A program made the position numbers and the translations under genes. Of a stretch of 64,000 bases of DNA, positions 21,177-64,000 are shown in pieces; positions within the stretch are counted from its first letter, which is position 1; every line of letters starts with the position of its first letter. The notes beneath the pieces were generated by a model. That model saw only the letters and a program-made list of their open reading frames with translations. It was not told the origin of the DNA and searched no databases. The DNA lies in the NCBI GenBank assembly GCA_035524755.1, contig DATKOD010000003.1, positions 2,206 to 66,205 of the forward strand, read 5' to 3'. This DNA comes from Minisyncoccota bacterium (GTDB lineage Bacteria; Patescibacteriota; Minisyncoccia; 2-02-FULL-40-12; GWA2-44-9).

Positions 21177-22541
21177 TCATGGTCTGACCGCGACAGGCGC
21201 CGATGCCGTGTACTCGTCGCGCAGGTATCGGAACTTATCCTGGACGTAGCCTTTCGTCTCGCTCAGGAGACACTGCCGGTACGTTGGCTTGCGACAGTCC
21301 GTACCACGGGCATCAACCCAGTCGGGCGAGTTCTTCTTGAGCGCGATGCGATAGACCGCGGTCACCCGCTTGGTGCCGGTATTGTATCCGGCGAACTGGA
21401 GCTCATCGATATGGGGATCGCTCATGATGGCCGTCCCGAACGCCTTCACGTAGTCGGCAAGCTGGAGATCCAGGAGCAGGATCGCCGCTTTCATGCTGTT
21501 GAGCGCCTGCCGCCGGCCGGTATTGGTGTCGGTCACGAGGCCTGCGGCCGGATATGCCTTCCGAACCATCGTATATGAACTCGCGATGAACTGCTGCGGA
21601 CCGCATGCGCCCGCCGGACTGCACGTGAACGATGCGAACATGTCGCCGTTGGCGCCGATGGTGGCGTAGACGCGGTTGGTCGTCCATTGCGGGTCCAAGA
21701 TGAACTCGGTCAGGTCCATGTGCTCGATGGGCATGATCTTGTCGATGGGGAACGCCTTCGGATATTTCGCGATGACGTCAGCGATGAGCATGCCGGGCAA
21801 CGCCCGCGAGACGACACCCCGCGCGCGTAGATCATCCGTCGCCTTCGCGATGGTATCCGCCACGTACCGTTGTCCTTCTGCGATCACGTCAGCCACCGCG
21901 ATCGGTTCGCTGTACGGTACGTTGATGAATTCGGTGACCCGCGGCTGTCCCTTCTTCGGTGCATCATTGACGATGGGATATTTCACCCCGACGACGATTG
22001 AATCGGACGGCGAAGCGATGGCGAACTGCGTGTTCCAGTTGTTCCACTCGATGCCGTTGGCACGGCGCACGACGCTCATCGCCCACCCCGCCGGCGCCTG
22101 GAGCACCGCGACCGGTTCATTCTTGATGGTCCACTTCGTGCCGGTGCGTGTCGCGACCGGGACGTTCATCTGCGCCATCCCGTACGTTTTCTTGACGGTG
22201 ATGACCGATGTCGTGCACGTCGTGGTGTTGAGCACCCGCACGGCGATGTCCTTGATGTAGTCCTTGTAGACCTTCAGGACGCCCAGACGCACTTCCACGT
22301 ATGAGTGGAGTTTCTGGTCGTACGACAACGATGCAGACGCCAACTGGACATCAGAAGGGGTCCCGGCGATGACTGAGGCGATGTCGCATGCGGGTTTCGG
22401 CGGCAGCACCGGAGACACATCCTCCGGCGCATAGAACCCGACCCGTACCGATGTCGGATCGGGTGCTTGTGCGTGCACCGATAGGACCCCGAAACCGACC
22501 GCGGCAATGACCGACGTTGTGGTGATCAGCAGTCTACGCAT
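21177..22541 (-). CDS. secreted hypothetical protein (signal peptide, several Cys pairs)
   Basis: Start at MRRLLITTTSVIAAVGFGVLSVHAQA (M18 of the track ORF); this signal peptide is cleavable. About 454 aa with no recognised domain. Confidence 0.7.
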   Translation of the reverse strand: MRRLLITTTSVIAAVGFGVLSVHAQAPDPTSVRVGFYAPEDVSPVLPPKPACDIASVIAGTPSDVQLASASLSYDQKLHSYVEVRLGVLKVYKDYIKDIAVRVLNTTTCTTSVITVKKTYGMAQMNVPVATRTGTKWTIKNEPVAVLQAPAGWAMSVVRRANGIEWNNWNTQFAIASPSDSIVVGVKYPIVNDAPKKGQPRVTEFINVPYSEPIAVADVIAEGQRYVADTIAKATDDLRARGVVSRALPGMLIADVIAKYPKAFPIDKIMPIEHMDLTEFILDPQWTTNRVYATIGANGDMFASFTCSPAGACGPQQFIASSYTMVRKAYPAAGLVTDTNTGRRQALNSMKAAILLLDLQLADYVKAFGTAIMSDPHIDELQFAGYNTGTKRVTAVYRIALKKNSPDWVDARGTDCRKPTYRQCLLSETKGYVQDKFRYLRDEYTASAPVAVRP

Positions 22542-22604
22542 ATGCTCCTTTTGTACTGAGGGTTGGGAACGAACCCGGGAACGATACCACACTGTCGGCC
22601 GTCC

Positions 22605-23903
22605 TCACAGGTCGCTCTTGATGTTCGCCGCAAGCAGCTGGACGGAATTCGCATAGTTGACGCAGCTGGCGTTCGTGCTCGCAGCATTGCCGCAATAATA
22701 TTTCTTCGATGCCGCGATCTCTCCCGCACGGGTCTGGCTGCTGGCGCCGTCATTCGAAAGCTTCGCTGCGGCCGCGACGAACGCGTCTTCGATGTTCCAG
22801 GGATCGGGCAGCGCATGGCCGGATATCGCGGCGATCTGATCTCGATACCCCATCCACGTTGACGGCAAGAACTGCGCCGCACCCATGGCGCCTCCCCATT
22901 TGGAACCGCATGAGATCGGGGTCTGGAAAGGATCGCGGTTCAATTGCGCGGTGATACTGAGGAAATACGGGAGGTCTCTCGTGGGATTGATGCCGTAGGT
23001 ATAGATCTGGCCGTTCGTGATCCTCCGCGTCTCCCCGCTGGTCGAATCCACGATGTAGCACTTCCCGACGTTTGCCCCGAGCGCACTCTCTTGCTCGAGC
23101 TCCGCGATGAGGAACTCCGGCCGGATACCGGCTCCGATGGCGGCAAGCTGCCCATATTTGATCGCATCCTCTGCCGAGACGCCGTTCTGTTGCAGGTAGT
23201 AGATCTGTTCCTGCAGGCGTTGCAGATTCGTCTTGGTGGTCGCTACCAACTGTTGGTATTTGCTCTCTTGGCCCTGCGTCACCTTCAATAACTGGTTTTT
23301 GTCGGTTTTCGTCGTCGCAAGTTGACGCTGTTGCGCTTCTTGGAGCGCTTGAGCCTGCTCCAGACTCGTCTGTTGGTCCTGGAGCTGGGACTGTTGCTGG
23401 TCCAGTTGATCGCGCAAATCGCTGATGGACTGGATGGCCGTGCTCAGCGAGTCCTGCGTGCGCTGGATATCATGCACGCGGTCGAAGAAGTCCGACAGTG
23501 TGCCGCTCTGGAGCAGGATCATCGAGAGCGGTTGCAGATCGTTCTGCGCCGTTTCACGGAGCGCTGAGGCAAGCGCCTGCTGGTGCACCGAAATCTGCTG
23601 TTCCGCATTCTCGATGGCGGTCTGAGTCTGACCGATTTCAAGTCCGGTCTCATCGATGGACGCCTGGAGAGATTGGATCTGCGTGCTCAATACGCTGATC
23701 TGTGCGTTGAGCTTCGAGATTTCCGTCTGCAACGATTGCTTCTGTGTGCTCGCCTGGGTCAACTGCTCTTGCGCAGCGTCCAGCTGCGCCTGCAACTGCG
23801 TCTGCTTCTGTTGCAGGGCGGCAATCTCGTCCTGAACGGCCGCATGCGCCGTCAACGGAACGACGAGCGCACAAAGAGCGACGATTGCGACCAACCGCCT
23901 CAC
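22605..23903 (-). CDS. coiled-coil protein with C-terminal lytic murein transglycosylase (MltB/Slt35-like) domain
   Basis: A long Q/L-rich coiled coil follows the signal-like segment RRLVAIVALCALVVPLTAHA. The C-terminal region has GAMGAAQFLPSTW, the family-3 LT signature. A GTG start at ~23903 forms a GTGA overlap with the upstream stop; the track ORF extends to 23966. Confidence 0.8.
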   Translation of the reverse strand: MRRLVAIVALCALVVPLTAHAAVQDEIAALQQKQTQLQAQLDAAQEQLTQASTQKQSLQTEISKLNAQISVLSTQIQSLQASIDETGLEIGQTQTAIENAEQQISVHQQALASALRETAQNDLQPLSMILLQSGTLSDFFDRVHDIQRTQDSLSTAIQSISDLRDQLDQQQSQLQDQQTSLEQAQALQEAQQRQLATTKTDKNQLLKVTQGQESKYQQLVATTKTNLQRLQEQIYYLQQNGVSAEDAIKYGQLAAIGAGIRPEFLIAELEQESALGANVGKCYIVDSTSGETRRITNGQIYTYGINPTRDLPYFLSITAQLNRDPFQTPISCGSKWGGAMGAAQFLPSTWMGYRDQIAAISGHALPDPWNIEDAFVAAAAKLSNDGASSQTRAGEIAASKKYYCGNAASTNASCVNYANSVQLLAANIKSDL

Positions 23904-24346
23904 TGGACGATGATCGTACCGGTCTGCGACGCGTTCGATTCGTCCGCGTGGTTCAGGTAGTGGCACGTCTGTGAATCATTGAACGCCAATGAGTATGTCT
24001 CGCCGCGGTACAAGGAGCGGGTGGCGTCAAGTCCCGGGCAGCCGCCGGTGCCGCTGACGGTCATGGGCCAGAAGGCGATATCGGTGTCGTTGCGGAACGT
24101 GATGGCGTCACCGACCCGGATGGTGATGGTGGCCGGGGTCACGCCGGAAGCGGTCAGATGGACGATGTACCGCTGAGGTGTCGGGGTCGGCGTGGGGTAG
24201 TATCCGATGGGTGTGGGCGTCGGGGTCGGCGTCGTGGAATCGCTGGTCGAATCCGACCTCGTCGCCAGATACGTGATACCGACCGCCAGAAGCGCCACTA
24301 CGATGACCGAGATGATGAGTGTTCGTGAGGAGTACATAATCCCCAT
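23900..24346 (-). CDS. membrane-anchored hypothetical protein (TM, PT-rich linker, ~90-aa beta-rich domain, possibly cupredoxin/Ig-like)
   Basis: 148 aa with N-terminal TM LIISVIVVALLAVGITYL and a TPTPTPTP linker. The fold assignment is speculative. Confidence 0.6.
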   Translation of the reverse strand: MGIMYSSRTLIISVIVVALLAVGITYLATRSDSTSDSTTPTPTPTPIGYYPTPTPTPQRYIVHLTASGVTPATITIRVGDAITFRNDTDIAFWPMTVSGTGGCPGLDATRSLYRGETYSLAFNDSQTCHYLNHADESNASQTGTIIVQ

Positions 24347-24390: not shown

Positions 24391-24891
24391 ATGCACACAC
24401 GTCGGGTGCTCACTATTGGTGCCGTTCTCCTTATGGCAGTGCTTCCGGTCGTCGCGATTGCCGCTGATCAGCCGCTCCAATCAGGTTCTGATTCCCTCGG
24501 CGCAGCAGTAGCCTCGCTCTACCGATACGGCCTGAGCATCGTGGGTCTCGCAGTATTCGTTATGTTTTTGTATGCAGGACTCCTTAAGATGTTTTCGGAG
24601 ACTTTTATCAGCAAATGGGTACCGTCAGGTTGGGAAAAGAACTCTACCGTTGTCATTCAAGATGCGGTCATCGGGCTCATCCTCTTGTTCGCCTCATATC
24701 TCATCCTCAACACGATCAATCCTGATCTGGTGACGCCGCAGAAAGCGTCCCCGACGTCAACGACGACCTCGACCAGTTCTTCGGCGGGAACGGTGGGTCT
24801 TCCCACGAGCAGCAGCGTGCCGACGCCCGTACCGACATTCCAGGGCGGCGGAGGTTCATTCGGCGGCGGCGGTGCCTCAGGAACTTTTTGA
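24391..24891 (+). CDS. VirB2/TrbC-type (T4SS) pilin-like protein
   Basis: 166 aa with signal peptide MHTRRVLTIGAVLLMAVLPVVAIA. The mature part has two hydrophobic helices (LSIVGLAVFVMFLYAGLL; AVIGLILLFASYLILNTI) separated by a short loop, then an S/T-rich tail ending GGGGSFGGGGASGTF. The family call is by architecture only. Confidence 0.55.
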   Translation: MHTRRVLTIGAVLLMAVLPVVAIAADQPLQSGSDSLGAAVASLYRYGLSIVGLAVFVMFLYAGLLKMFSETFISKWVPSGWEKNSTVVIQDAVIGLILLFASYLILNTINPDLVTPQKASPTSTTTSTSSSAGTVGLPTSSSVPTPVPTFQGGGGSFGGGGASGTF

Positions 24892-29997: not shown

Positions 29998-32232
29998 CTA
30001 GCGGGCGCTGCAGGCGCAGCTGACGGTCAGCGACGCGTCATGCAACCAGGCCGCTTGGACGCCGCATGCCGTGCTGGTGGCGCTGTCGGTGAAGTCGTAC
30101 TCGTAGGTGGTCACGCCCGGGATGGAGCTCTGGTAGGTGGCATCGTCGCTGCCGTAGTAGTTGCTCCACTTGTAGTTGTTGTTGGAGTTGCCGTGGCGAT
30201 GCGGCGTGTCGCATTCGTGGTTGGGGCCGTCCTGCCAGGTTCCGCCGTCGGCCGTGCAGGCGTCTCGCGCATGGCTCGAGCTGTCGTGCATGTAGTACAC
30301 GTACTGCGTCGGTCCCGTCTGCGGGAGCTTGTAGAACGCGTAGAGCGTCTGGCTGTTGAAGCCCGTGAACGTGGCGCTCGCGCCGGGGCCCAGGTTGAAC
30401 GTGCCGTTCGGGATGATGCTGTCCGCGGGGTCGTCCTTGTTCGTGGCCACCACGATGGCGTACGTGACCTGGTCGCTCCGGTTGTTCTTCAGGGTCCAGG
30501 TGTTGACCTTCGGGCAGTCCTGCGGCGGGATCGCGATGCTGTAGGTGTGGTCGTAGCTCTTCGTGCACTGCAGCTCCGACGGGCCATAGCTGACCACCTC
30601 GGTGTAGACGTCCGAGAAGGTGAAGGTCGAGCCGTAGGCCGGGCGGTTCACCACCTTGGGCAACGGATCGGACCACGTGCCGCCCGACGGGCGAACCGTA
30701 CCGCTGGTCACCTTCTCGGTGGTCGCGGTCTTGTCGGTGAGGTCGAGGTCACCACGGAAGTCCGGCGGGGTCGGCGTGTAGTCGGCACAGGTCTTGGTGC
30801 GCGGCGGGATGACCACGGGCGTCGTCACCGGACAGGTCAGCGAACCGCGAACGACCGTCAGAGTCGCGGTGAGGGTCTGCTGGCTGTCGGTCTGAGCGTA
30901 GCCGTGCGTCACGTTGAACGGATTGTTCTCGTTGTCGGACGCTCCGTCGCCGTATGCCAGCGACCCGGTGCCGGGGTTCACCCAGCTGCCATGGAGGCCG
31001 ACGTTGTACGTGCTCGCGATGCTGGCACGCACCGACTTGGCGTGCACCGAGTCCGCCCCCACCGTGTAGGTGCTCAGCTGCGGGTTCACGTCTCCGCATG
31101 TCGGGTCCTTCGCGGGCACCGTCTTGGTGAAGGGCTTGGAGACCGTGCACTTGAGGTTGTCCGGGCCGTAGCTCTTCGTGTAGGTGTCGCTGAAGGAGGC
31201 GTCCGGCTGTCCGAAGTTCGGACGATTGACCGTCGCCGGAAGCGCGGTGGACCACGTGCCGCCCGTCGGAGCGACCGTGCCGGCGTCGAACGTGTAGCTC
31301 GACGGTCCGGGGGTCACGCCCAGGTCACCCGTGATGGTCGGCGGGGTGTAGTCCTTGCAGGTGGGGTTCGTGCCGACCGTGACGGTGATGGACGGGTCGC
31401 ACTCCACACCGCCGCCGGTGAGCTTCAGCTTGATGGTGAACTTCTGCTGCGGCTCGGCGGGGTACGTGTGGCTCACGGGGACACCGTTGGTCGCCGATGA
31501 GGTCGTGTTGTCGCCCCAGTCGAGGACGCCATTGATCTTGGTGTCGCCGACCTTGTGGTTGAACTTCGGCGTGACCGTGATCGTGGTGCCGTCCTGCGTG
31601 TACGTGAGCGATCCGTTGATGGTCTCGCAGGTCACGCAGGGCTCGGGGTAGTTGAACACCACCCCGAACGGCCACCTCACCTCGTCGGTCGCATTCTTGA
31701 AGAGGCCGTCGTGCTGGTCCATGCCGCAGGAGTTGACGCTCACGTCCCACTGCGTCGTGAGCTTGACGCCCACGGTGGACGCCTTGAACGTCAGGTGGTC
31801 GTTCTGGTCGGCCCCGTTGCCGGAGCCGGCCGAACCGCAGCTGTTCTCGGGGGCGTGGAACGCGCCTGAGCGCAGCCATCCGTCCGAGGCGCTGATGATG
31901 CCCCAGGTGACGGTGTACTTCTTCGACGCGGTCACGACCTGGCAGCGGTTGTCGAGCAGATCGAGGTTCGTATCGAGCACGCAGAACGTCAGGGTCTTGT
32001 CGCGAGAGCTGACCGTCTCCTTGCCCTCGCAGATGCCGGAGCCGGTGACCGTCTGGCCCGTGCCGGATGCCGGAGGCGCCGGGACGGACGCGTTGGAACC
32101 GCTCGTGGCGGGGGCCTCGGAGACGACACTCGGGGAGGTGGACGTGTCGCCGCCCTTGTTGCAGGCGACGGGAACGAGGCAGACCGCCGTCACGACGGCG
32201 GCGATGCCCAGGAACGTCATCAATCGACGCAT
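29998..32232 (-). CDS. large Cys-rich lipoprotein with two internal ~100-aa repeats, hypothetical
   Basis: 744 aa. Signal peptide plus lipobox (LVPVAC). Two paralogous modules (TCKDYTPPTITGDLG... and TCADYTPTPPDFRGDLD...). More than 30 Cys. The segment has extreme GC with open frames on all strands. Confidence 0.75.
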   Translation of the reverse strand: MRRLMTFLGIAAVVTAVCLVPVACNKGGDTSTSPSVVSEAPATSGSNASVPAPPASGTGQTVTGSGICEGKETVSSRDKTLTFCVLDTNLDLLDNRCQVVTASKKYTVTWGIISASDGWLRSGAFHAPENSCGSAGSGNGADQNDHLTFKASTVGVKLTTQWDVSVNSCGMDQHDGLFKNATDEVRWPFGVVFNYPEPCVTCETINGSLTYTQDGTTITVTPKFNHKVGDTKINGVLDWGDNTTSSATNGVPVSHTYPAEPQQKFTIKLKLTGGGVECDPSITVTVGTNPTCKDYTPPTITGDLGVTPGPSSYTFDAGTVAPTGGTWSTALPATVNRPNFGQPDASFSDTYTKSYGPDNLKCTVSKPFTKTVPAKDPTCGDVNPQLSTYTVGADSVHAKSVRASIASTYNVGLHGSWVNPGTGSLAYGDGASDNENNPFNVTHGYAQTDSQQTLTATLTVVRGSLTCPVTTPVVIPPRTKTCADYTPTPPDFRGDLDLTDKTATTEKVTSGTVRPSGGTWSDPLPKVVNRPAYGSTFTFSDVYTEVVSYGPSELQCTKSYDHTYSIAIPPQDCPKVNTWTLKNNRSDQVTYAIVVATNKDDPADSIIPNGTFNLGPGASATFTGFNSQTLYAFYKLPQTGPTQYVYYMHDSSSHARDACTADGGTWQDGPNHECDTPHRHGNSNNNYKWSNYYGSDDATYQSSIPGVTTYEYDFTDSATSTACGVQAAWLHDASLTVSCACSAR

Positions 32233-40973: not shown

Positions 40974-40982
40974 ATTGTCTTG

Positions 40983-41053
40983 CTGGGGGGATTGGATTCG
41001 AACCAATATTCGCGGCTCCAAAGGCCGATGTCCTACCATTAGACGACCCCCCA
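40983..41053 (-). tRNA. tRNA-Gln (anticodon TTG)
   Basis: Hand fold: U1-A72 acceptor TGGGGGG/CCCCCCA, D-stem GTCT/GGAC, anticodon loop CTTTGGA, T-arm ATTGG-TTCGAAT-CCAAT, discriminator G. These match bacterial tRNA-Gln identity elements. Confidence 0.8.
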
Positions 41054-41063
41054 AGATGCCCCA

Positions 41064-42089
41064 CTATACCAGTTCTATGATGGCCAACTCCAGCGGCAAT
41101 GTCGGAATCGTGCTTGAACGGAGCTGACCGCGCGCGTTGGTGAATGCCGTGATAGCACGCACCAGCCACGCACCGTCTAACCCGGCGGCCAGCGCCTTGA
41201 CCGCCGCTTCGCGCACGTCGGCGAGCCCGGCCGACGCCAGGATGCCCGGGTCTATCTTCGTGAGCATCACCTGCCGCAGGAACTCCACTAGGCCACGGGC
41301 GACATGGTCCATGTCGGCGCCATTCTGTGCGACATCGGCAAGTTCACGTAGTGCCGTGACGCGATCATGCGCGGCCACCAGACGGACCAGGCGGTCGTAC
41401 CAACCCTGCGGCACCAGCCCGAGAACTGACTGTACCGTAGCCGTCGTGATACGCGCACCGTCGGCATGGCTCACCAGCTTGGTGAGCATGACCTCGGCGT
41501 CACGCACCGCGCCGTCTGCGGCCGCTGCCATGGTCGCCAATGCGTCCGGCTCGACGTCGAGTTTCTCCTTCTTCACGATGTAGGCGAGCTTCGTCGTGAT
41601 CTGCGCCTGGGTCAGCTTGCGGAAATCGAACCGCTGGACGCGCGACAGCACCGTCGGAATGATTTTATGCGGTTCCGTGGTCGCGAGGATGAACAGCGCA
41701 TGGGCCGGCGGCTCCTCCAGAAGCTTCAGGAGCGCGTTGAACGCGTCTTTGGACAACATGTGCACCTCGTCCACGATGAAGACTTTGTAGGGCATCAGCG
41801 CGGGCGATGATGCGGCCGTCTCTTTGAGCTGCCTGACGTCGTCGATGCCGCGGTTGGACGCCGCATCGATCTCCACGAGGTCCATGCCCGGATCCCCGTC
41901 GGGCTTCAGGCCCATCGCGGCTTTCGCGAAGATGCGGGCTACGGTGGTCTTCCCGGTGCCCCGCGGTCCCGCGAACAGGTATGCATGTCCGATGCGGCCG
42001 CTGGAAAGCGCGCCCTGCAGCGTGCGGACGACGTGCTCCTGACCGACCACCTCGGACCAGGTGGCGGGGCGGTACGTACGGTACAACAT
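41064..42089 (-). CDS. dnaX: DNA polymerase III subunit gamma/tau, short form (341 aa)
   Basis: Walker A (AGPRGTGKTT), DEVH box and clamp-loader motifs. It lacks the tau C-terminal domains. Confidence 0.85.
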   Translation of the reverse strand: MLYRTYRPATWSEVVGQEHVVRTLQGALSSGRIGHAYLFAGPRGTGKTTVARIFAKAAMGLKPDGDPGMDLVEIDAASNRGIDDVRQLKETAASSPALMPYKVFIVDEVHMLSKDAFNALLKLLEEPPAHALFILATTEPHKIIPTVLSRVQRFDFRKLTQAQITTKLAYIVKKEKLDVEPDALATMAAAADGAVRDAEVMLTKLVSHADGARITTATVQSVLGLVPQGWYDRLVRLVAAHDRVTALRELADVAQNGADMDHVARGLVEFLRQVMLTKIDPGILASAGLADVREAAVKALAAGLDGAWLVRAITAFTNARGQLRSSTIPTLPLELAIIELV

Positions 42090-42104: not shown

Positions 42105-42716
42105 CTACTTTTTCCGGAAAACGAACACCCGGAATCCCGTGAACGAGAAGATGAGCGCGACCGCGGAACCGACGACTGCACCGACGCCGGCCCATGCGGC
42201 CGTCGTGAATCCGGCCGGGCGGAGCGCGATGGTGATTGATGCTGCCGCGACGTTCACCAACACTGACGCGAGCGCGACCACGAGGAACCGCCCGATCTCA
42301 CCTGAGCCGCCCCGCGCTGAATCTTGGAATGCCCAGATCTTGTTCCAGAAATAGCTGTGAACGGTCGCAACACTGAATGAAAGGGTCTTGAACAGCGCGT
42401 ACGCGATGCCCGTGCTCAGACCGGTCAGCGCGATGAGCAGATACAGCACCCCGAAGTCCACGAGGGCATTGGCGAATCCGATGGCGGCGAACCGGCCGAA
42501 CTGCACGAACGGCTTGAACCACACCCCGAGGATATATCCCAGCTGCACGCCCAGGATCCAAAGGATGGGCACGAGCCAGATGAGTACCGAGGTGTTGATG
42601 CCCAACGGCAGCGACTTCCCCAAATACCGCAGGATGGCATCTGCGATGATCCCGGTGGTCAGACCGGTGATGAGTCCGTAGACGACATCTCTTCCTGATA
42701 CGATACGCATTGACAT
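42105..42716 (-). CDS. GtrA-family membrane protein
   Basis: 203 aa with 4-6 TM and a GtrA-like pattern. Confidence 0.6.
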   Translation of the reverse strand: MSMRIVSGRDVVYGLITGLTTGIIADAILRYLGKSLPLGINTSVLIWLVPILWILGVQLGYILGVWFKPFVQFGRFAAIGFANALVDFGVLYLLIALTGLSTGIAYALFKTLSFSVATVHSYFWNKIWAFQDSARGGSGEIGRFLVVALASVLVNVAAASITIALRPAGFTTAAWAGVGAVVGSAVALIFSFTGFRVFVFRKK

Positions 42717-42719
42717 ACG

Positions 42720-45149
42720 TTAGGTGGTACGTTCGAAGCGCTGCCGGATTTCTGATTCCACTTCTTCCCGCGGACGACCGAATTTCGCATGGCTGGATTC
42801 GATGATGGCATCGCGAACGGCCGGATCGCCTTTCGCCAGTCCGATCTCCGCGAGACCGCGCATGCTCGTAGGCCGCGCAACCTGACTGTTCACCAGCATG
42901 GATACATACGCATGGAAATTATCGATGTTGGAAACATCGTACGGAGAGAACACCGGTTCGAACTTCGTCTTCAGGAGCGGCATCTCGGCATCCTCCGGAC
43001 TGACACGGTACACCACCATGGTGCCGACGTTGCCGAAGACCGAATCGCGGATGGCGTCGTCAAGCTGCTTGATGAACTGATGCGCCATGATGAGACATAG
43101 GCGATACTTCCGGGCTTCCGCGAGGATGACCGAAATGGAATCCGTCGTGAAGTTCTGGAATTCATCCATATACAGATAGTGATCGGGCAGGTCAGCGCGT
43201 TTCGTATCGCGCGCCAATGCCGCACGGCGTAGTTTGCCGGTGATGACCATGCCCAACAGGTTCGCGTTCATATCACCGATCTTCCCTTTCGACAGGTTAC
43301 AGATAAGTATCTTCCGGTTCTCGATGACATCCCTGAAATCGATGACGCTCGTCTGTTGGTTCACGATGGGCCGCAGAAAATCATTGGACGTGAACGTATC
43401 GATCTTGCTGGTGACATATCCGGCGAAATTCGCCAGCGACTGGTCGCCGGTCATCTTCGTGGCTTCCAATTCCCAGAACTGCTTCACGACCGTGTTGGAC
43501 TCGTGCGCCAATAGGTCATTGCGGAATGCCTCGTCGACGAACACCCGTGACATGTCGGCCAGCGTCGGTACCCGCCGCTCGTAGTTATCGAGCAACAGGT
43601 ATGTCGCATTCTTGAAATACCGCTCGAACATCGGTCCGCCGGTCTCCTTGAGGTCGTACAGCTTCGACATGATCTCGAATAATTCGTCGATGATGAGCGT
43701 TTTATCCTGCGGATTGGACGGGTCGAACTCGAGCATGTTCAATCCCAGCGGGAACGACGTATCGCCGGGGTTGAAATAGATGACGTCGTCGATCCGTTCC
43801 TTCGGGACGTTCGCTAACACCCACTCCGCGAACGAGCCGTGCGGATCCAGTACCGTAATGCCGTCCCCCGACTCCAAATCCTGGGGTATCATCGACTGCA
43901 TCGTGACCGTTTTTCCGGTTCCGGTCTGTCCGATGATGTACATATGACGCCGACGGTCTTCGCGCGCGATGCGAAGCAGCGTCGACTGGCCCCGGTATTC
44001 GTTCATGCCGAACGCGATGCCATGCTCGGGAAGACCCGGTGGCGGCTCGGCCGTCTTGAAATTCACGAACTTGACCTTCGGCATGACCGCCATGCCGGTG
44101 GGAAAGTGGTACACGCTGGTAAGTTCCTCCGCCGACAGCGTGACCGTCTGAGCGTCATCGAACAGGCGAAAGGCGAATTCGAATTCCAACCGCTCCAACG
44201 CCTTGCCGGACAGTTTCTTCACGTTGAATCCGTTCCGGTCAGCCGTCGTATATTGCGAGAACGCGCCGGCGACATCGTTCATGATGGCATCCGCACGTTC
44301 CGGTGAGGACGATGAGGCGAGGATGCGAATGTTGCAGTCGAACAGCGGGCGTGATGCCTTGGACTGCAACGCGGTGATGAGTTTCTGTTCGAATTCGGTG
44401 GCGACCTTCGGCGGTTCTTTGAGCGCGGCGTCCGAGTCTCTCTTTTCATCCTTCTTCGGCGGATGCTGGGCGAGTTTGAGCGCTTTATGGAAATCATTGC
44501 CCGCCTGCATCTGACGTGCGGTATCGGACGCGAGTTTCCGGATCCCGGCATGCGACGACGGCCGGACCGCGATCTGGATGGCGACACCTTCGCCCTCCTT
44601 CTCGATCCTGCCCATCGCGCTCACCAGCGGACCGAGCGGATCGCTGGGCAGCTCGGTATAGGTCAGTACCGGCAGGATGGGATCCTCACGCTGGGTCAGG
44701 TAGGCGCCCGCCGAGCCGCCCTGCGGATTGAAAATGTTGTAATCCGGGCTCCGTTGAACGGTGGCGGTCGGAAACACGCCGACCATCTGCTTCTCGAACT
44801 GATCAGCGAACTTCGACGGCACCGCGGCGTAGAAATGGATCTGCTCGCCGATATGGTGCACCGCCATTTCCAGCACCAGGTACGGATCGCCGAACAGGAA
44901 CTTGTTCCACCCTTTGATCTTCAGGTTTGCCACCGACGCATACAACTGCTCCATGACCGCGATGAGTTTGCGTTCGTCCTTCTCCCCTCCCTCGGCGGCG
45001 AACCGCGGCAGAAGGAACAGCAGCAGCTGCATGTCCAGAGAACGCGACAACGACGTACGCGAACGGAGACCGTTGACGACGATCAACGCGGCGACGGCCA
45101 GAATGACCGCGACCAACGCCAAGAGTACAAGCGTGATGACGGGCGACAT
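42720..45149 (-). CDS. membrane-anchored AAA-like ATPase of the VirB4/TraC/HerA (DUF87) superfamily
   Basis: 809 aa with an N-terminal TM. Walker A (IIGQTGTGKT) at ~residue 405, Walker B (LYMDEFQNF), and a HerA/VirB4-like AEARKYRLCLIMAHQFIKQL motif. It has a ~380-aa non-ATPase N-terminal region. Confidence 0.7.
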   Translation of the reverse strand: MSPVITLVLLALVAVILAVAALIVVNGLRSRTSLSRSLDMQLLLFLLPRFAAEGGEKDERKLIAVMEQLYASVANLKIKGWNKFLFGDPYLVLEMAVHHIGEQIHFYAAVPSKFADQFEKQMVGVFPTATVQRSPDYNIFNPQGGSAGAYLTQREDPILPVLTYTELPSDPLGPLVSAMGRIEKEGEGVAIQIAVRPSSHAGIRKLASDTARQMQAGNDFHKALKLAQHPPKKDEKRDSDAALKEPPKVATEFEQKLITALQSKASRPLFDCNIRILASSSSPERADAIMNDVAGAFSQYTTADRNGFNVKKLSGKALERLEFEFAFRLFDDAQTVTLSAEELTSVYHFPTGMAVMPKVKFVNFKTAEPPPGLPEHGIAFGMNEYRGQSTLLRIAREDRRRHMYIIGQTGTGKTVTMQSMIPQDLESGDGITVLDPHGSFAEWVLANVPKERIDDVIYFNPGDTSFPLGLNMLEFDPSNPQDKTLIIDELFEIMSKLYDLKETGGPMFERYFKNATYLLLDNYERRVPTLADMSRVFVDEAFRNDLLAHESNTVVKQFWELEATKMTGDQSLANFAGYVTSKIDTFTSNDFLRPIVNQQTSVIDFRDVIENRKILICNLSKGKIGDMNANLLGMVITGKLRRAALARDTKRADLPDHYLYMDEFQNFTTDSISVILAEARKYRLCLIMAHQFIKQLDDAIRDSVFGNVGTMVVYRVSPEDAEMPLLKTKFEPVFSPYDVSNIDNFHAYVSMLVNSQVARPTSMRGLAEIGLAKGDPAVRDAIIESSHAKFGRPREEVESEIRQRFERTT

Positions 45150-45550
45150 CAGGGAGCGGGCTCAACCTTCCGGCGTTCCAGCAGTTGCGAGTGGAATTCA
45201 TCGGCGAGCACGTCGTGCAGTGCATCGATGAGCGCGGGATTGCCGGAAGCGACAGCCTGGTCGATGGCGGCCTGCAGGCTCTGCGTGAACACCACGTTCA
45301 CCAGTTGCTGCACCGGGCCGGCCAACGCCGGGTCCTGCCAGCTCGGCGTGCCTGCCACGGGTTGCGATGCCGCTGGCGCCGGTTGGTAGTTCGGCACTGA
45401 CTGTTGGATGCGTTCGCCGACCGCCTCATGCACTTCTGCCCGTTCATACGGCGTCGATGCGTCAGCGCCCAGCTCCGCGCGTTTCTCCTGGAGCCTGCGT
45501 TCCAGGTCTGCGATCTCCGTCTCGATCGGACCGGTGGTGTTCTCAGCCAT
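45149..45550 (-). CDS. hypothetical protein (~133 aa)
   Basis: Its stop overlaps the ATPase start (ATGA). No recognised domain. Confidence 0.45.
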   Translation of the reverse strand: MAENTTGPIETEIADLERRLQEKRAELGADASTPYERAEVHEAVGERIQQSVPNYQPAPAASQPVAGTPSWQDPALAGPVQQLVNVVFTQSLQAAIDQAVASGNPALIDALHDVLADEFHSQLLERRKVEPAP

Positions 45551-45581
45551 GCACATCCATTGTAGCACACCCCGTGCTACA

Positions 45582-47144
45582 ATGAAGCCAATGAAGCGTA
45601 ACGAATTGCTGGTCTTGCTGTTGATCCTTGCGATCGCAAGTTGGTTCCGGCTCGCCGGTCTTCACGACACGCCGCCCGGGCTCTACCCGGACGAAGCCAT
45701 GGTCGGCAACGAGGCTATCAATGCGTGGAACACGAAGACGTTCTCCGTCTTCTACCCGTACAACAACGGAGAAGAAGGCCTGTACGCCGATATCGCATCG
45801 ATCCCAATCCACTTTCTCGGCAATACGGCCTTTTCGCTCCGGCTCGTGTCAGCCATCGCAGGCATCCTGACGGTCCTTGGCGTCTATCTTCTGGCGCGGC
45901 GGATGTTCGACTCGTGGGAGCTCGCCGCGATGGCCGCATTTTTCTTGGCGACCGGTTTTTGGCATGTGAATTTCTCACGTATCGGGTTCCGCGCCATTCT
46001 GGCACCGATGTTCGCCGTATGGGGATTCTATGAACTCTATAAGGGCCTGGAGACCAACCGGATATGGCATTGGGTGTTGGCGGGTGTCTCGTTCGGTTTG
46101 GGCATGTACACCTACATCGCGTTCCGCGTGATGCCGTTGGCCATCCTCTTGGTGTTGGGGGCATACTGGCTTGCCCTCAGTGCGGCGTTCTCGCACGGAA
46201 AGTTCGCCTTCGTCCGACATCAGCTTGCCGGCGGTGTGGCGGCGATGATCGGTGTCGGGATCCTGGTCTGTCTGCCGATCGCCGCATATTTCGTCGGTCA
46301 TCCGGCTGACTTCGTCGGACGCACATCGCAGATTTCCGTATTCAGCACGTCCAATCCCGTGATGACCGTCGCCGTCAATACGGTGAAGACGCTCGGCATG
46401 TTCTTCCTGGCTGGTGATTCCAACTGGCGTCATAACATCTCTGGCGCGCCTATCCTGTTCTGGCCGGTCGCCGCGCTCTTCGCCGCGGGTCTCGTGCACA
46501 CGCTTTGGCGGTTCTATGATTCGTGGCGTAAGCGGGGACATCCTGGCGTGGTACAGACACTTCTCCTGTCGTGGTTCCTCATCGGCCTTATCCCTGAAAT
46601 CTTCTCCAATGAGGGGATCCCCCATGCGTTGCGTTCCATCATTGACGCTCCCGTGGTCGCCATCATTTCTGCCGTCGGGCTGCACTGGCTGACCGTGTGG
46701 CTACGGAAATGGTATGCCATGCGTGACACGCACAAGATTTGTCTGCCCGGCCCCCGCGGCCACCGCTGGTGTGTCGGTGAGGGTTCGTTGGTCGTCGGCA
46801 TCTCCGTCATCTCGCTGTTGTTCGCAATCGGTGTCGCCGAAGCGAACCGCTATTTCGTGACGTGGGCGCAGGATCCGAACGTGCCGGGTGCATTCAACGA
46901 GAACTACGCGGACATCGCACGCCACATCAACAGTCTGCCCCCCGCAACACTGAAATACGTCATCGTCAATGCCGGTGGAGTGCTCGTCAATGGCATCCCG
47001 ATGCCCGCACAGACCGTCATGTACCTGACGGATACGTGGACTCCCGCGGATCAGGCGGCACATCACGTGGTCTATCTCCTGCCCGAACAGGTCGCGTCCA
47101 CACGCATCCCCCGTGGCGCTGCCGTGTTTTCCATCGATCCATAG
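45582..47144 (+). CDS. GT39-family glycosyltransferase (PMT/ArnT-like, polyprenyl-phosphate-sugar dependent)
   Basis: Start at MKPMKRNELLVLLLILAIASWFRLAG. Multi-TM, with the DE-like motif YPDEAM in the first loop. Confidence 0.8.
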   Translation: MKPMKRNELLVLLLILAIASWFRLAGLHDTPPGLYPDEAMVGNEAINAWNTKTFSVFYPYNNGEEGLYADIASIPIHFLGNTAFSLRLVSAIAGILTVLGVYLLARRMFDSWELAAMAAFFLATGFWHVNFSRIGFRAILAPMFAVWGFYELYKGLETNRIWHWVLAGVSFGLGMYTYIAFRVMPLAILLVLGAYWLALSAAFSHGKFAFVRHQLAGGVAAMIGVGILVCLPIAAYFVGHPADFVGRTSQISVFSTSNPVMTVAVNTVKTLGMFFLAGDSNWRHNISGAPILFWPVAALFAAGLVHTLWRFYDSWRKRGHPGVVQTLLLSWFLIGLIPEIFSNEGIPHALRSIIDAPVVAIISAVGLHWLTVWLRKWYAMRDTHKICLPGPRGHRWCVGEGSLVVGISVISLLFAIGVAEANRYFVTWAQDPNVPGAFNENYADIARHINSLPPATLKYVIVNAGGVLVNGIPMPAQTVMYLTDTWTPADQAAHHVVYLLPEQVASTRIPRGAAVFSIDP

Positions 47145-61206: not shown

Positions 61207-64000
61207 TTACGGCGTCGGGAGAACAGATGCGTCAGGGGTCGGGGTGTCGCTCGGTGAAACAGCCGGGGTATCCGTCGACGTCGGTGTCGGCATCGGCGTC
61301 TCGGTGTCGGTGGGCGCCGGCGCCGGACTTTCGGTCACAATCGGCGAATCAGTCGGAGTGGGGCTTGGCGTTGGTGTCGATGAAGGAGTCGGCAGAGGCG
61401 TAGCAGTATCGACGCGCGACCGTTGCAACAGATCATTGAGCTGGTCACGGTCAATGCACACGTCTTTCACGCAGAGCTGATCGGTCTGCACGGAGCCGAA
61501 CACGCCACGCACGGTTTGGATGAGTCCGTTGTCGATCGTGATGTTCCAGAGCGACGCGAAGAGCTGTTTGATGCCGTTCATCATGGTCCCCCAGAACGAA
61601 TCGGGAGCCGGCTGGTCGTGCGCCGCGGCAAGCTGTGATTGAATGGATGTCAGGTCGAGGTACTGCTCCTGGACCGGCGCCCAGTACGACGTGTTCACGA
61701 AGGTGAGAACGGTGGCCGACGTCGATCGTTCCAGCGAGATGCCGATCGACATGCCGGGTCCGGTCTGTTTCATCGCATAGCCGGGCTTGGTCGCAGAGAC
61801 CGTGAGGTGGTCACCGGGAGAAACCGAGCCGTTCTCATCGGAAAACTTCACGGGGACACGGCCGGCCATGGCGATGGGAACGGTACCCAGGATATGCTGG
61901 ACTGCCGCTCCGGTCCGGACTTCGGAGCCGGTGATGAGCACGGCGGGATTGGTGGACACGACGCCCAGAGGTGTCCCGGACGTCATTGCACGGACGACGA
62001 ACGAAGTCTCGGCAGGATCAGGCATGACGACATCGCCGGCAGAAAGAGAGCCGTCCGATGTCGGGTATGACTCAGCATAGTCGATACAACCGGATGACGG
62101 CGTATTGACCCCGGTGCACGTAGAGAGGGCACCATGAGAAAGGATGTTGCCGCGTAATGACAAGGTGCCGCCCATGGACCAGGAGGCGACCACGACACCG
62201 CTGGTGTTCGTGACGAGCATGATGCCATGAGCGTTATTGGCGGATGAGGACGCGGGAACGGTTATGCTGAAAATACTGCCGCCGGCCAACGAGGTGGCGG
62301 AGATGCTGGCGATACTGGTCGTGGTCAGAGTGTTCGCGGCGATTTCGAGTTTTGCATCCACGTTCGCCGTTCCGATGCCGACATAACCGGAAGAAGCGAT
62401 ACGCATGACTTCGGTGAGCGAGGTCGTCGGTGCGGTTTTGAATATGATGTTGCCGCCGCCTGCCGATGAACCGCCGGAAACGCCTCCATTGATGATGATG
62501 CTCCCGCCGGAACCCACTCCACTCGAACCGGCGCCGCCCGTACCGCCTTGGATCGTGAATGCCCCGCCCGCGCCGCCGAACTTGTTGGTACCCAAGGATG
62601 AACCGCCGCCCGTGCCGGCCGTCAGCGTGAATGCCCCGCCCGCGCCGCCGGTGACGGTCGTGCTGTTGCCCGAGGTAGAGCCACCGGTGCCTGCCGTGAT
62701 GTTGACCGCACCGCCGGTACCACCCTGGATGGCCGATATACCGCTTTCGTTCGCCAGACCACCGGGACCGGCATTGAGTGTGAACGTGCCGCCATTGCCG
62801 CTGATCGCGGTAGTCCCCGCAACTGTGGTCGTACCGCCCGTACCGAGCGTGATGGTCATCGCTCCACCGTTCCCGGCGGTCACGGTCGCCGAATTTGACG
62901 CGACATTGCCACCGTTGCCTGTCGTCAGTAGAAGGGAGCCGCCCACGCGGCCAATCTTTGAACTCGTGCCGCCATTGCCCGCAGTCAATGTGAGCGTGCC
63001 ACCGACACCGCCGGTGCCGGTGCCGGAACCGTTCGTGCCCAGGATGCTGACGCCGCCGCCGTCCGATGCCGAAGCAGCCGCTGAGCTGCCGCCCGTCAGC
63101 GTGAGCAGGCCACCGTCGCCATTATCGAAATTACCGATTCCCGTGCCGATACCGGCATTGCCTGCAGCGACCGTGAATGCGCCGCCTGCGCCGCCGATAT
63201 TGGTTCCGCCCAGAGATGCACCGCCACCCGCACCTGCGCGGATCGTGATGGCGCCGCCGTTGCCTCCCGTGTTCGTGCCGGACGTGGCGGCAGCAGACGC
63301 GCCGCCGGTGCCCGCTGTCCAGGCGAACAAACTTCCGTTGCCGCTCGTGTTATTCCCCGTACCCGCAATGGCGGCATTGCCGCCCGTGCCGCCACTGATC
63401 GTGAAGTCACCACCTTTACCGCCGTTCGCGACTGCGGTCGCATTGGCACCTGGAATTCCGCCATTACCCATCGTGAACGTGATGACGCCGCCGATGCCGC
63501 CGGTCTTGGTCGTCCCAGGGCCGTTGGAACCGGTGCCGCCCAGACCGGTGGTCACGGTCAATGCACCGCCTGATGCCGATGCGATGGAGTTACCGGCGGT
63601 GAGCACGATGTTGCCGCCAGCGCGATTGAGCAGGTTCGTACCGCTATTCGCAGTTCCAGCAGTGATGGAGACCTGGCCGCCGATGCCGCCGGTGCCGGTG
63701 CTGGAGCCGTTCCGCGCGGTTATAGCAACTGCACCGCCGGCGGAACCAGATGCGGCAGCCGAGGCGCCACCTTGGAGTGTCAAGAGTCCCCCGTTCCCCC
63801 CGATGCCGTTTGCACCGATTCCGGTTCCGACGCCGCCGGTGCCTGCAGAAATCACGAAATCACCGCCTGCGCCACCGGTATTCACGCCCGTGGCGTTCGC
63901 TGCCGAGCCGCCGGTACCGGCCACCCAGTTGTAAGCGGAGCCGACACCACCGGTGTTCGAGGCGGCACCGACGCCGTTCGCCACGCCGCCGGTGCCGCCC
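61207..64000 (-). CDS. giant glycine-rich repeat surface/fibre protein, partial (N-terminus beyond window end)
   Basis: More than 925 aa in the window, and the frame stays open to position 64000. It has hundreds of GGxGGx repeats (TGGAGGAFT, GNGGAITI and similar). After the repeats comes a ~300-aa non-repetitive beta-rich domain starting ...MRIASSGYVGIGTANVDAKLEI, then a Pro/Thr-rich C-terminal tail. Confidence 0.75.
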   Translation of the reverse strand, partial: GGTGGVANGVGAASNTGGVGSAYNWVAGTGGSAANATGVNTGGAGGDFVISAGTGGVGTGIGANGIGGNGGLLTLQGGASAAASGSAGGAVAITARNGSSTGTGGIGGQVSITAGTANSGTNLLNRAGGNIVLTAGNSIASASGGALTVTTGLGGTGSNGPGTTKTGGIGGVITFTMGNGGIPGANATAVANGGKGGDFTISGGTGGNAAIAGTGNNTSGNGSLFAWTAGTGGASAAATSGTNTGGNGGAITIRAGAGGGASLGGTNIGGAGGAFTVAAGNAGIGTGIGNFDNGDGGLLTLTGGSSAAASASDGGGVSILGTNGSGTGTGGVGGTLTLTAGNGGTSSKIGRVGGSLLLTTGNGGNVASNSATVTAGNGGAMTITLGTGGTTTVAGTTAISGNGGTFTLNAGPGGLANESGISAIQGGTGGAVNITAGTGGSTSGNSTTVTGGAGGAFTLTAGTGGGSSLGTNKFGGAGGAFTIQGGTGGAGSSGVGSGGSIIINGGVSGGSSAGGGNIIFKTAPTTSLTEVMRIASSGYVGIGTANVDAKLEIAANTLTTTSIASISATSLAGGSIFSITVPASSSANNAHGIMLVTNTSGVVVASWSMGGTLSLRGNILSHGALSTCTGVNTPSSGCIDYAESYPTSDGSLSAGDVVMPDPAETSFVVRAMTSGTPLGVVSTNPAVLITGSEVRTGAAVQHILGTVPIAMAGRVPVKFSDENGSVSPGDHLTVSATKPGYAMKQTGPGMSIGISLERSTSATVLTFVNTSYWAPVQEQYLDLTSIQSQLAAAHDQPAPDSFWGTMMNGIKQLFASLWNITIDNGLIQTVRGVFGSVQTDQLCVKDVCIDRDQLNDLLQRSRVDTATPLPTPSSTPTPSPTPTDSPIVTESPAPAPTDTETPMPTPTSTDTPAVSPSDTPTPDASVLPTP

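Follow-up and report, generated by a model that had tools for sequence, protein, structure and literature searches.

A coupling-protein-like DUF8128 ATPase and its small partner protein in Patescibacteria

Introduction

The coupling proteins TrwB of R388, TraD, VirD4, DotL/IcmO and Cag-beta combine a motor fold carrying an all-alpha insertion with Walker A and B motifs, an ARx motif and a conserved Gln. At their N-terminus lies a domain with two TM helices, and they carry nothing resembling the VirB4 N-domain. VirB4 proteins (TrwK, TraC, CagE and the Thermoanaerobacter VirB4) belong to the same branch of translocation ATPases, and their genes go with those for VirB3, VirB6 and VirB8. In the R388 structure, the VirB4 N-terminal domain docks to VirB3 and VirB8. 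Relaxases are, to our knowledge, nearly absent from the phylum Patescibacteria.

Homologues of both kinds of motor have been surveyed in Patescibacteria. Quinonero-Coronel et al. (2025; PMC12102498) reported 5,713 VirD4-like T4CP homologues in 2,918 genomes, about two per genome, which were matched by VirD4 profiles and lie far from virB4 (148 are near it). FATA-related VirB4 was present in 2,417 of 3,035 genomes. Their Table S3 includes Paceibacteria genomes with a VirB3-TrsD-VirB4-VirB2 cluster and distant t4cp1 matches. In Ca. Southlakia epibionticum the t4cp homologue is dispensable for epibiotic growth while other T4SS genes are essential (PMC12102498), which would count against a T4SS function for such proteins; Wang et al. 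describe an Se T4SS cluster without a recognisable coupling protein. Exaptation of the Patescibacterial T4CP homologues was raised by the authors of the survey, which does not describe an N-terminal domain, a small partner or split and fused architectures (PMC12102498). Here we analyse a gene pair from a family that shows all three, found in a window of 64,000 nucleotides (the whole stretch of DNA under study).

Results

The product of the larger gene, an ATPase, is identical to a deposited Paceibacterota protein, and the window is Paceibacterota chromosome. The pair and its parts lie as follows.

45149..45550, minus strand: small partner gene, 133 aa, upstream of the ATPase gene
42720..45149, minus strand: coupling-protein-type ATPase gene, 809 aa; its start codon and the small-gene stop share one base
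45069..45140, minus strand: N-terminal transmembrane anchor, residues ~4-27, from a hydropathy scan
43995..45038, minus strand: DUF8128 N-domain, residues ~38-385, with a predicted alpha/beta fold resembling the VirB4 N-terminal domain
42840..43976, minus strand: RecA-like motor domain of the HerA/VirB4/VirD4 clade, residues ~392-770
43908..43931, minus strand: Walker A, GQTGTGKT, residues 407-414
43350..43709, minus strand: all-alpha insertion between Walker A and Walker B, residues ~481-600
43161..43178, minus strand: Walker B, YLYMDE, residues 658-663
43101..43118, minus strand: arginine-finger region EARKYR, residues 678-683

The initial annotation described an 809-aa ORF with an N-terminal TM helix, Walker A, Walker B and an RKYR motif. 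All of these are present, and their key residues are invariant in 108 homologues: G407, G410, G412 and K413 of Walker A, D662 and E663 of Walker B, and E678, A679, R680 and K681 of the arginine-finger region, along with the downstream Q691. EARKYR aligns with AQARSLG of DotL, and this conserved arginine-finger position is compatible with inter-subunit catalysis. Judged by its motifs and invariant residues, the ATPase is catalytically intact.

The single hydrophobic helix is followed by an Arg-rich stretch (RSRTSLSR); the AF2 model has a long helix at residues 3-38, and a helix of this kind, again only one, occurs in 42 of 50 TM-type homologues. From the positive-inside rule, we infer an N-out topology with the remainder of the protein in the cytoplasm. 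The next ~350 residues had been called unassigned and novel. Precomputed annotation assigns them to Pfam PF26449/DUF8128, a domain common to ATPases of Streptomyces, Bacillus and haloarchaeal plasmid T4SS clusters, for which our literature search found no paper. The fold predicted for this domain is that of a VirB4-type N-terminal domain, a feature of VirB4 proteins. The modelled insertion is formed by helices at 481-596 (DSSP), about 115 all-helical residues, and the PF10412 match to the ATPase is split into two stretches. By its position, the insertion may be the counterpart of the TrwB all-alpha domain (AAD); a helical insertion is likewise known from the VirB4 CTD. Beyond the motor domain, residues 776-806 form a C-terminal helical hairpin. 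Long family members (1,400-2,000 aa) have disordered tails and no additional Pfam domains.

On sequence, the motor belongs to the HerA/VirB4/VirD4 clade and bears coupling-protein signatures. The ATPase matches PF10412 (TrwB_AAD_bind; 43.3 bits, cut-off 20.5), PF02534 (T4SS-DNA_transf; 26.5 bits, cut-off 20.1) and PF01935 (above the gathering threshold), and reaches 19.7 bits against PF12696 (TraG-D_C), slightly below the 22-bit threshold. Among 30 diverse members, PF10412 and PF01935 match every one, PF12696 matches 29 and PF02534 matches 19. Canonical coupling proteins are also the best sequence-level matches in the PDB: phmmer finds DotL (5e-8) and TrwB (0.01), and a profile search finds TrwB (1e-5), DotL (3e-5) and HerA (1e-3), with no VirB4 among its matches. 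Structure alignment of the model covers 361 of the 420 residues of TrwB and 386 residues of Cag-beta. NCBIfam equivalog models all score far under their cut-offs (20-35 bits versus 366-800), the best TraD/VirD4 model being TIGR03743 with 35.2 bits against 366. The earlier description of a VirB4/HerA-like ATPase was right about the VirB4/VirD4/HerA translocation branch, but by sequence the protein resembles coupling proteins and is not a member of VirB4; its likeness to VirB4 is confined to the fold predicted for the N-domain. Canonical coupling proteins have another arrangement at the N-terminus: where they have the two-TM domain, the ATPase has one TM helix and the 350-aa VirB4-like domain, a difference that counts against a T4CP reading. 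We suggest that the ancestral connection of VirB4 with VirD4 may have been preserved here as a domain-level hybrid.

The small gene had been proposed to be coupled to the ATPase gene, and comparison with other genomes bears this out. It is kept upstream of the ATPase in other lineages (42-45% identity), and in a sister clade the ATPase carries the small protein as an N-terminal fusion in place of the TM helix. Because of this fusion, we consider it a true partner of the ATPase. The gene begins with ATG at 45550 (a GTG-extended ORF reaches 45568), and its overlap with the ATPase start is TGATG, with the single shared base at 45149, not the ATGA first given. The protein consists of an N-terminal amphipathic/coiled-coil helix, a Pro/Gln-rich linker and a conserved C-terminal helical module with the motif ..LVN.aFt....AI..A...N.ALIDAlHD.L.D; it has no TM helix and no Pfam family, and each of its 50 database homologues is named 'hypothetical'. 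At 32 of 50 TM-type loci, an HMM of the small family matches the ORF that immediately precedes the ATPase gene; among fused-type proteins, it matches the N-terminal extension in 35 of 36. Likewise, hhalign joins the small-protein and fused-extension alignments over 121 columns (98.1% probability, E 1e-13). This homology is visible only by HMM and profile-profile comparison; pairwise BLASTP of the small protein with one fused homologue gives no match. The fused proteins, which lack the TM helix, are monophyletic in an NJ tree. The small gene upstream in ABY1-type loci has no detectable homology to the 133-aa protein.

Two further genes continue the string downstream of the ATPase.

42105..42716, minus strand: gene for a GtrA-family membrane protein, lying 3 nt beyond the end of the ATPase gene (Pfam GtrA_DPMS_TM, 1e-16)
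41064..42089, minus strand: dnaX (clamp-loader gamma/tau) gene, assigned by Pfam, next in the tight gene string; context only

The gtrA gene is probably co-transcribed with the ATPase gene, and its position at +1 is conserved in the close clade only. None of the evidence we found supports functional membership of gtrA in the ATPase module. The dnaX gene occurs again downstream of the ATPase in 12-17 loci. No terminator-like sites were found within the string on the minus strand, and the promoter/terminator scan of the string was uninformative.

The DUF8128-ATPase family is present in at least 597 Patescibacteria species genomes, and its N-domain forms 1,180 clusters at 50% identity. Its neighbours are always housekeeping genes: the order is either small gene, ATPase, gtrA and dnaX, where PMT_2 genes run divergently, or secY, adk, map, ATPase and ndk. 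The family tree is apparently vertical, with clades that match the architectures. These proteins are best read as a vertically inherited core chromosomal module of Patescibacteria. The family is very probably the same set as the T4CP homologues of Quinonero-Coronel et al. (PMC12102498), or a subset of it. By gene-index arithmetic only, KKP96999.1 would be our locus L018.

Across the window and 86 Patescibacterial loci, no T4SS structural gene lies beside the ATPase and no relaxase or T4SS gene is encoded with it, which counts against a T4SS role. VirB3-, VirB6- and VirB8-like genes, the companions of VirB4 genes, do not adjoin it at the loci examined. The initial annotation envisaged a T4SS dispersed across the window. 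No VirB3, VirB4, VirB6 or VirB8 family matched in a scan of ~35 of the larger window ORFs (~7 ORFs of at least 150 aa lie outside this set), and a Pfam scan taken to E values of 1 over the supposed pilin-like ORF at 24391 and the adjacent ORFs returned nothing useful, leaving both proposals unsupported. The three large unassigned ORFs at 2411-4231, 29998-32232 and 61207-63984 are not callable as T4SS parts, because PDB sequence searches with them also gave nothing useful.

Outside Patescibacteria, full-length relatives of the ATPase occur inside monoderm and archaeal T4SS clusters. On plasmid p1 of Streptomyces sp. BHT-5-2, a homologue of 814 aa (26.6% identity, E 1e-42) stands in the order PrgI(VirB3), VirB4, homologue, a 166-aa protein and an NlpC/P60+SLT cell-wall hydrolase. 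On the B. subtilis plasmid NRS6107_2, the 913-aa WP_213380696.1 (BLASTP 9e-41, query 81-753), which ends in an acidic disordered tail, is encoded immediately upstream of a replication-relaxation relaxase, followed by TcpE and an AAA_10 VirB4. A haloarchaeal plasmid carries the two domains as neighbouring ORFs, WP_317175933.1 and WP_317175934.1, beside a 'conjugal transfer protein', whereas the window encodes them as one protein. The full-length homologues hold the coupling-protein position in T4SS or conjugation clusters. The plasmid proteins share DUF8128, the motor motifs and the Pfam signature with the window ATPase at 23-27% identity, but they have no small CPR partner upstream, and those of Bacillus and haloarchaea lack the TM helix that anchors the window protein. 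They lie within T4SS/relaxase clusters, whereas the window gene is chromosomal and detached from T4SS genes.

Discussion

We favour, with a probability of about 0.5, the reading that the gene pair encodes a T4CP-class translocation ATPase, putatively hexameric, with a small cytoplasmic protein dedicated to it, the two probably serving a Patescibacterial T4SS encoded elsewhere. The ATPase would lie on the cytoplasmic side of the membrane, anchored by its own TM helix or, in the fused, TM-less form, through partners. Its VirB4-like N-domain could dock on the inner-membrane platform (VirB3/VirB8/VirB6-like) of the MPF-FATA-related T4SS found elsewhere in the genomes of most Patescibacteria, and ATP hydrolysis would recruit substrate or push it through the T4SS channel. 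Given the near-absence of relaxases in Patescibacteria, the role is not coupling in the classical sense, and the substrate would be a protein or nucleic acid other than relaxase-led DNA. The small coiled-coil protein may act as an adaptor or regulator, by functional analogy with the motor-binding partners CagZ of Cag-beta, TraM of TraD and IcmSW of DotL.

Alternatively, the ATPase may be a housekeeping translocase that works independently of any T4SS, exapted from a conjugative coupling protein, with the small protein as a targeting subunit. It could serve in tasks such as chromosomal DNA movement at division, import of DNA or nucleotides, or extraction and insertion of envelope proteins. The core-genome behaviour of the family, its vertical-looking tree with architecture-specific clades, its place in the secY-adk-map...ndk string or beside dnaX, and the scarcity of T4CP homologues near virB4 (148 of 5,713; PMC12102498), for which exaptation has been proposed, all fit this idea. 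The initial annotation named best matches to FtsK or another housekeeping translocase, with conserved synteny unrelated to secretion, as its refutation, and half of this is seen: the synteny is of a housekeeping kind, unrelated to secretion, but the best matches are not to FtsK, a protein confirmed in Saccharibacteria in the literature. The ATPase lacks the gamma and 4-TM domains of FtsK/SpoIIIE, and PF01580 falls below threshold. Moreover, every one of the closest relatives outside the CPR belongs to a T4SS or conjugation cluster, the retained N-domain is of the VirB4 type whose known role is docking to VirB3 and VirB8, and neighbourhood is weak functional evidence in tiny genomes. We consider this translocase a possibility worth keeping in mind, albeit less likely than the coupling reading.

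In a more far-reaching proposal, the DUF8128 ATPases would be a VirB4/VirD4 hybrid lineage that, with a small co-evolving adaptor in split or fused form, became a core-genome motor in Patescibacteria, essential and expressed constitutively, acting as the 'missing' T4SS coupling ATPase or as an autonomous importer of host-derived macromolecules. We regard it as speculative and rather unlikely.

The ATPase could also be a second, divergent VirB4 that works in assembly or pilus biogenesis and not in coupling, as a paralogous energiser of the T4SS or of VirB2-like pilus assembly. This is quite improbable. VirB4 sequence models match nothing past the P-loop (TIGR00929 reaches 17.6 bits, cut-off 643), PF03135 and PF11130 are absent from the families reported for the ATPase, and PF19044 gives weak matches to 8 of the 30 members. 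A bona fide VirB4 is already encoded next to the DUF8128 homologue in the Streptomyces and Bacillus clusters, and the small partner lacks TM helices, unlike VirB3. A HerA-type role in defence or DNA processing was the alternative first offered. That the ATPase acts in this way, as one of the HerA/DndH/MADS type, is highly improbable, since no NurA, other nuclease, Sir2, methyltransferase or Dnd/MADS partner gene occurs at any locus examined, the ATPase has a VirB4-like N-domain and no HAS-barrel, and the family spans the phylum at constant housekeeping positions whereas defence islands are patchy.

Patescibacteria depend on host cells, and a T4SS is essential in the one genetically tractable species, with no coupling protein or cargo yet assigned to it. 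In several lineages of the phylum, the DUF8128 family supplies a near-universal coupling-type ATPase that is, by its motifs, catalytically intact. It comes with handles for study: the VirB4-like, putatively docking N-domain, relatives in the coupling position of monoderm T4SS clusters, and a dedicated small partner. The fusion/fission pair is useful for mapping the interface, and the Bacillus and Streptomyces plasmid homologues are mutable. If true, a role as coupling ATPase or importer would explain how cargo is selected and moved by the relaxase-less T4SSs of epibionts.

An ATPase and a small upstream gene in a housekeeping segment

The window (GC ~60%) is a segment of a Patescibacteria (Paceibacterota) chromosome, and its housekeeping content includes tRNA synthetases, PBP2, GreA, Obg, DnaX, RNase Y, an AddA-like helicase and five tRNAs. 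The initial annotation described an 809-aa ATPase with an N-terminal transmembrane (TM) helix, Walker A and B motifs and RKYR, and we find both the ORF and the motifs:

42720-45149 (-): ATPase gene, 809-aa ORF
ATPase residues ~4-27: single N-terminal hydrophobic helix, Arg-rich stretch after it
ATPase residues 407-414: Walker A, GQTGTGKT
ATPase residues 658-663: Walker B, YLYMDE
ATPase residues 678-683: EARKYR
ATG at 45550, end at 45149 (-): small gene, 133 aa, upstream of the ATPase gene

An identical protein has been deposited as 'type IV secretion system DNA-binding domain-containing protein [Candidatus Paceibacterota]'. Across 108 homologues the catalytic residues of the ATPase do not vary and, judged by sequence, it is intact and belongs among the P-loop motors of the VirB4/VirD4/HerA clade. 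The junction with the small gene, previously read as ATGA, is TGATG, in which stop and start have one base in common. A GtrA-family gene lies 3 nt downstream of the ATPase gene, followed by dnaX. Two divergent PMT_2 glycosyltransferase genes lie upstream of the small gene, and the gap between its start codon and the nearer one (45582-47144) is ~31 bp (45551-45581). With so little space between divergent starts, the promoters of both directions must lie within coding sequence or be very compact; a sigma-70 consensus scan of 45551-45581 found no promoter. A tRNA-Gln (40982-41053, -) lies between dnaX and a YibE/F gene. The mechanical call of the latter (405 aa) overruns this tRNA, so the true start is probably the methionine of MKKILWV, as in the 378-aa public contig call.

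A partner protein, separate or fused

The small protein has no TM helix and no Pfam family, and its database homologues are all 'hypothetical'. The ATPase family includes two clean architectures: TM-anchored proteins of ~800 aa, and a fused type of ~910-930 aa that lacks the TM helix and bears an extension of ~125 aa at the N-terminus. A small-protein HMM built over three iterations matches the next ORF upstream in 32 of the 50 loci of TM type (6 of those missed have a truncated flank) and, among 36 proteins of the fused type, the extension of 35, none of which has a separate small-gene copy. Profile-profile comparison aligns the small protein with the extension over 121 columns (98.1% probability, E 1e-13), and the two have the motif KGI..A..vA...NP..LD.FHD.L in common. 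In an NJ tree the fused proteins group as a single clade. Because of this fusion pattern, there is strong sequence-based evidence that the two window genes form one functional unit, in which the small protein is an obligate partner; the coupling proposed in the initial annotation is thus borne out.

A third clade (Uhr-, Falkow- and Komeili-bacteria-like) carries a different small gene directly upstream of the ATPase (loci L032-L034, L037, L041, L046, L067, L068, L074 and L083). Its product, of 150-180 aa, has a disordered N-terminal half and the conserved motif ..KGEE.a.KI..L....KvK.i..LI..WL..IPGVNKFFlEQEAKIKTD; hhalign finds no homology between it and the 133-aa protein.

A coupling-protein-like motor with an N-domain of predicted VirB4-like fold

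Pfam TrwB_AAD_bind, DUF87 and T4SS-DNA_transf score above gathering thresholds in the ATPase, and TraG-D_C just below (19.7 bits; threshold 22); among 30 diverse members these are found in 30, 30, 19 and 29, respectively. The top NCBIfam models are TraD and VirD4, with scores far under cut-offs. The best PDB sequence matches are DotL/IcmO (5e-8) and TrwB, and the family profile finds TrwB (1e-5) and DotL (3e-5) ahead of HerA (1e-3). By sequence profiles, the motor groups with type IV coupling proteins. Of the original VirB4/HerA-like assignment, membership of a type IV secretion system (T4SS) ATPase family stands, but the sequence affinity is coupling-protein-like instead.

The N-terminal stretch, earlier left without assignment, carries the precomputed annotation Pfam PF26449 (DUF8128), a name absent from the literature searched. 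Modelled alone (pLDDT 88.6, pTM 0.85), this N-domain has one strong structural relative, the N-terminal domain of TrwK/VirB4 of the R388 T4SS: TrwK chains fill the top 14 Foldseek places (E 2e-6 to 4e-4), and the rest exceed 0.01. The predicted fold is VirB4-like. The protein would thus join an N-domain of VirB4 type to a coupling-protein-like motor.

Distribution and relatives

The whole ATPase has >3,600 database protein matches, the N-domain alone 1,180 clusters at 50% identity, and a full-length relative (>=37% identity) occurs in at least 597 GTDB species genomes. Named genomes among 80 retrieved loci are Patescibacteria of the Parcubacteria/ABY1 kind (Yanofsky-, Nomura-, Wolfe-, Uhr-, Falkow-, Komeili-, Staskawicz-bacteria and others); a few MAGs are labelled otherwise by automatic assignment. 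Some members (P0218, P0239, P0241, P0249 and P0257, of 1,700-2,000 aa; also P0234 and P0240) have Pro/Ala-rich disordered C-terminal tails of 300-1,200 aa ending in the conserved motif (K/P)GE(V/I)(Y/F)(V/I)DE.G(N/K)V..G, as if a docking peptide sat at the end of a long tether. Such a tail is absent from the window ATPase.

A plasmid tblastn search found full-length homologues, N-domain included. Plasmid p1 of Streptomyces sp. BHT-5-2 encodes, in order, a PrgI-family (VirB3) protein, a VirB4 (P-loop_TraG/AAA_10/TraC_F_IV), the homologue (814 aa, 26.6% identity, E 1e-42), a 166-aa protein and an NlpC/P60+SLT hydrolase. The 913-aa homologue of B. subtilis plasmid NRS6107_2 (BLASTP 9e-41 across query residues 81-753), which lacks a TM helix and has an acidic disordered C-terminal tail, immediately precedes a replication-relaxation relaxase, with TcpE and an AAA_10 VirB4 next. 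A haloarchaeal plasmid encodes N-domain and motor in separate, adjoining ORFs (391 aa and a 'TraM recognition domain' protein, respectively) beside a 'conjugal transfer protein':

Halomontanus rarus plasmid (L088), 8749-9924 and 9914-12994: two overlapping ORFs, DUF8128-like domain and coupling-type motor

This split parallels TrsD and VirB4 of Gram-positive systems. From these cluster positions, the nearest relatives hold the coupling-protein slot in monoderm or archaeal T4SS or conjugation clusters that have their own VirB4. Bacillus phage G gp156 (JN638751.1 91048-93066) is also a full-length relative (E 2e-29, N-domain included in its 80% query cover), and relatives occur in ~30 other Bacillus-group phages.

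Other ORFs of the window

The initial annotation envisaged a T4SS dispersed across the window, which our window ORF scans did not support.

24391-24891 (+): 166-aa ORF with signal peptide, two hydrophobic helices and Ser/Thr/Pro/Gly-rich tail
22605-23966 (-) and 21177-22592 (-): its neighbours, an SLT_2 lytic transglycosylase gene and a 471-aa secreted protein

By eye, the 166-aa product may resemble VirB2/T4SS pilins over type IV pilins; it lacks the prepilin G/FTLIE motif, and a Pfam scan at E up to 1 gave no match. Of two large ORFs, 29998-32232 (-) and 61207-63984 (-), one encodes a Thr/Ser-rich putative lipoprotein (lipobox-like VPVAC) and the other a repeat protein rich in Gly, Thr and Ala, at least 925 aa long up to the window edge; Pfam and PDB sequence searches matched neither. 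Large ORFs of this kind coincide with local anomalies of GC and skew at 30-32 kb and 1-2 kb.

Discussion

That the gene is annotated, that its N-domain is a DUF and that 'orphan T4CPs' (type IV coupling proteins) have been counted in bulk is already known. In the literature searched we found no description of the VirB4-like fold of DUF8128, of a tie between DUF8128 ATPases and coupling-position ATPases on Gram-positive or archaeal plasmids, or of the split/fused small partner.

T4SS genes adjoin the ATPase gene in none of 86 Patescibacterial loci. The close clade conserves the string PMT_2, PMT_2 (divergent), small gene, ATPase, GtrA, DnaX; another large clade has secY, adk, map, ATPase, ndk ... 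RNase J-like. This separation is consistent with the counts of Quinonero-Coronel et al. (2025; PMC12102498), who counted 5,713 VirD4-like homologues across 2,918 Patescibacteria genomes and placed only 148 near virB4. Their Table S3 includes Paceibacteria genomes with a VirB3-TrsD-VirB4-VirB2 cluster and distant t4cp1 matches. By a gene-index estimate, KKP96999.1 may correspond to locus L018, which would place the present family among their t4cp homologues. They also raised possible exaptation of VirD4-like homologues. Exaptation to T4SS-independent housekeeping translocation is the main alternative, a tentative one, which the core-genome neighbourhood would fit. Best matches to FtsK/SpoIIIE or another housekeeping translocase, with conserved synteny unrelated to secretion, had been named as evidence against the initial reading; the conserved synteny is indeed housekeeping, but the best PDB matches are the coupling proteins DotL/IcmO and TrwB.

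Two other roles are less likely. A second VirB4 would suit the predicted N-domain fold, yet seems improbable: VirB4 N-terminal Pfam models do not match the family by sequence, and the family profile finds no VirB4 in the PDB. A HerA/DndH/MADS-like defence role, for which there is a PADLOC mad8 match (6e-17), is very doubtful in view of the family's core-genome distribution.

We favor, at a probability of about one half, a membrane-tethered, T4SS-docked motor with a small-protein partner. The ATPase would be held on the cytoplasmic side of the membrane and would dock, through its VirB4-like domain, on the inner-membrane platform of a FATA-related T4SS, which most Patescibacteria encode elsewhere in the genome. 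The small protein may serve as its adaptor or regulator, and together they may recruit or drive a non-relaxase substrate.
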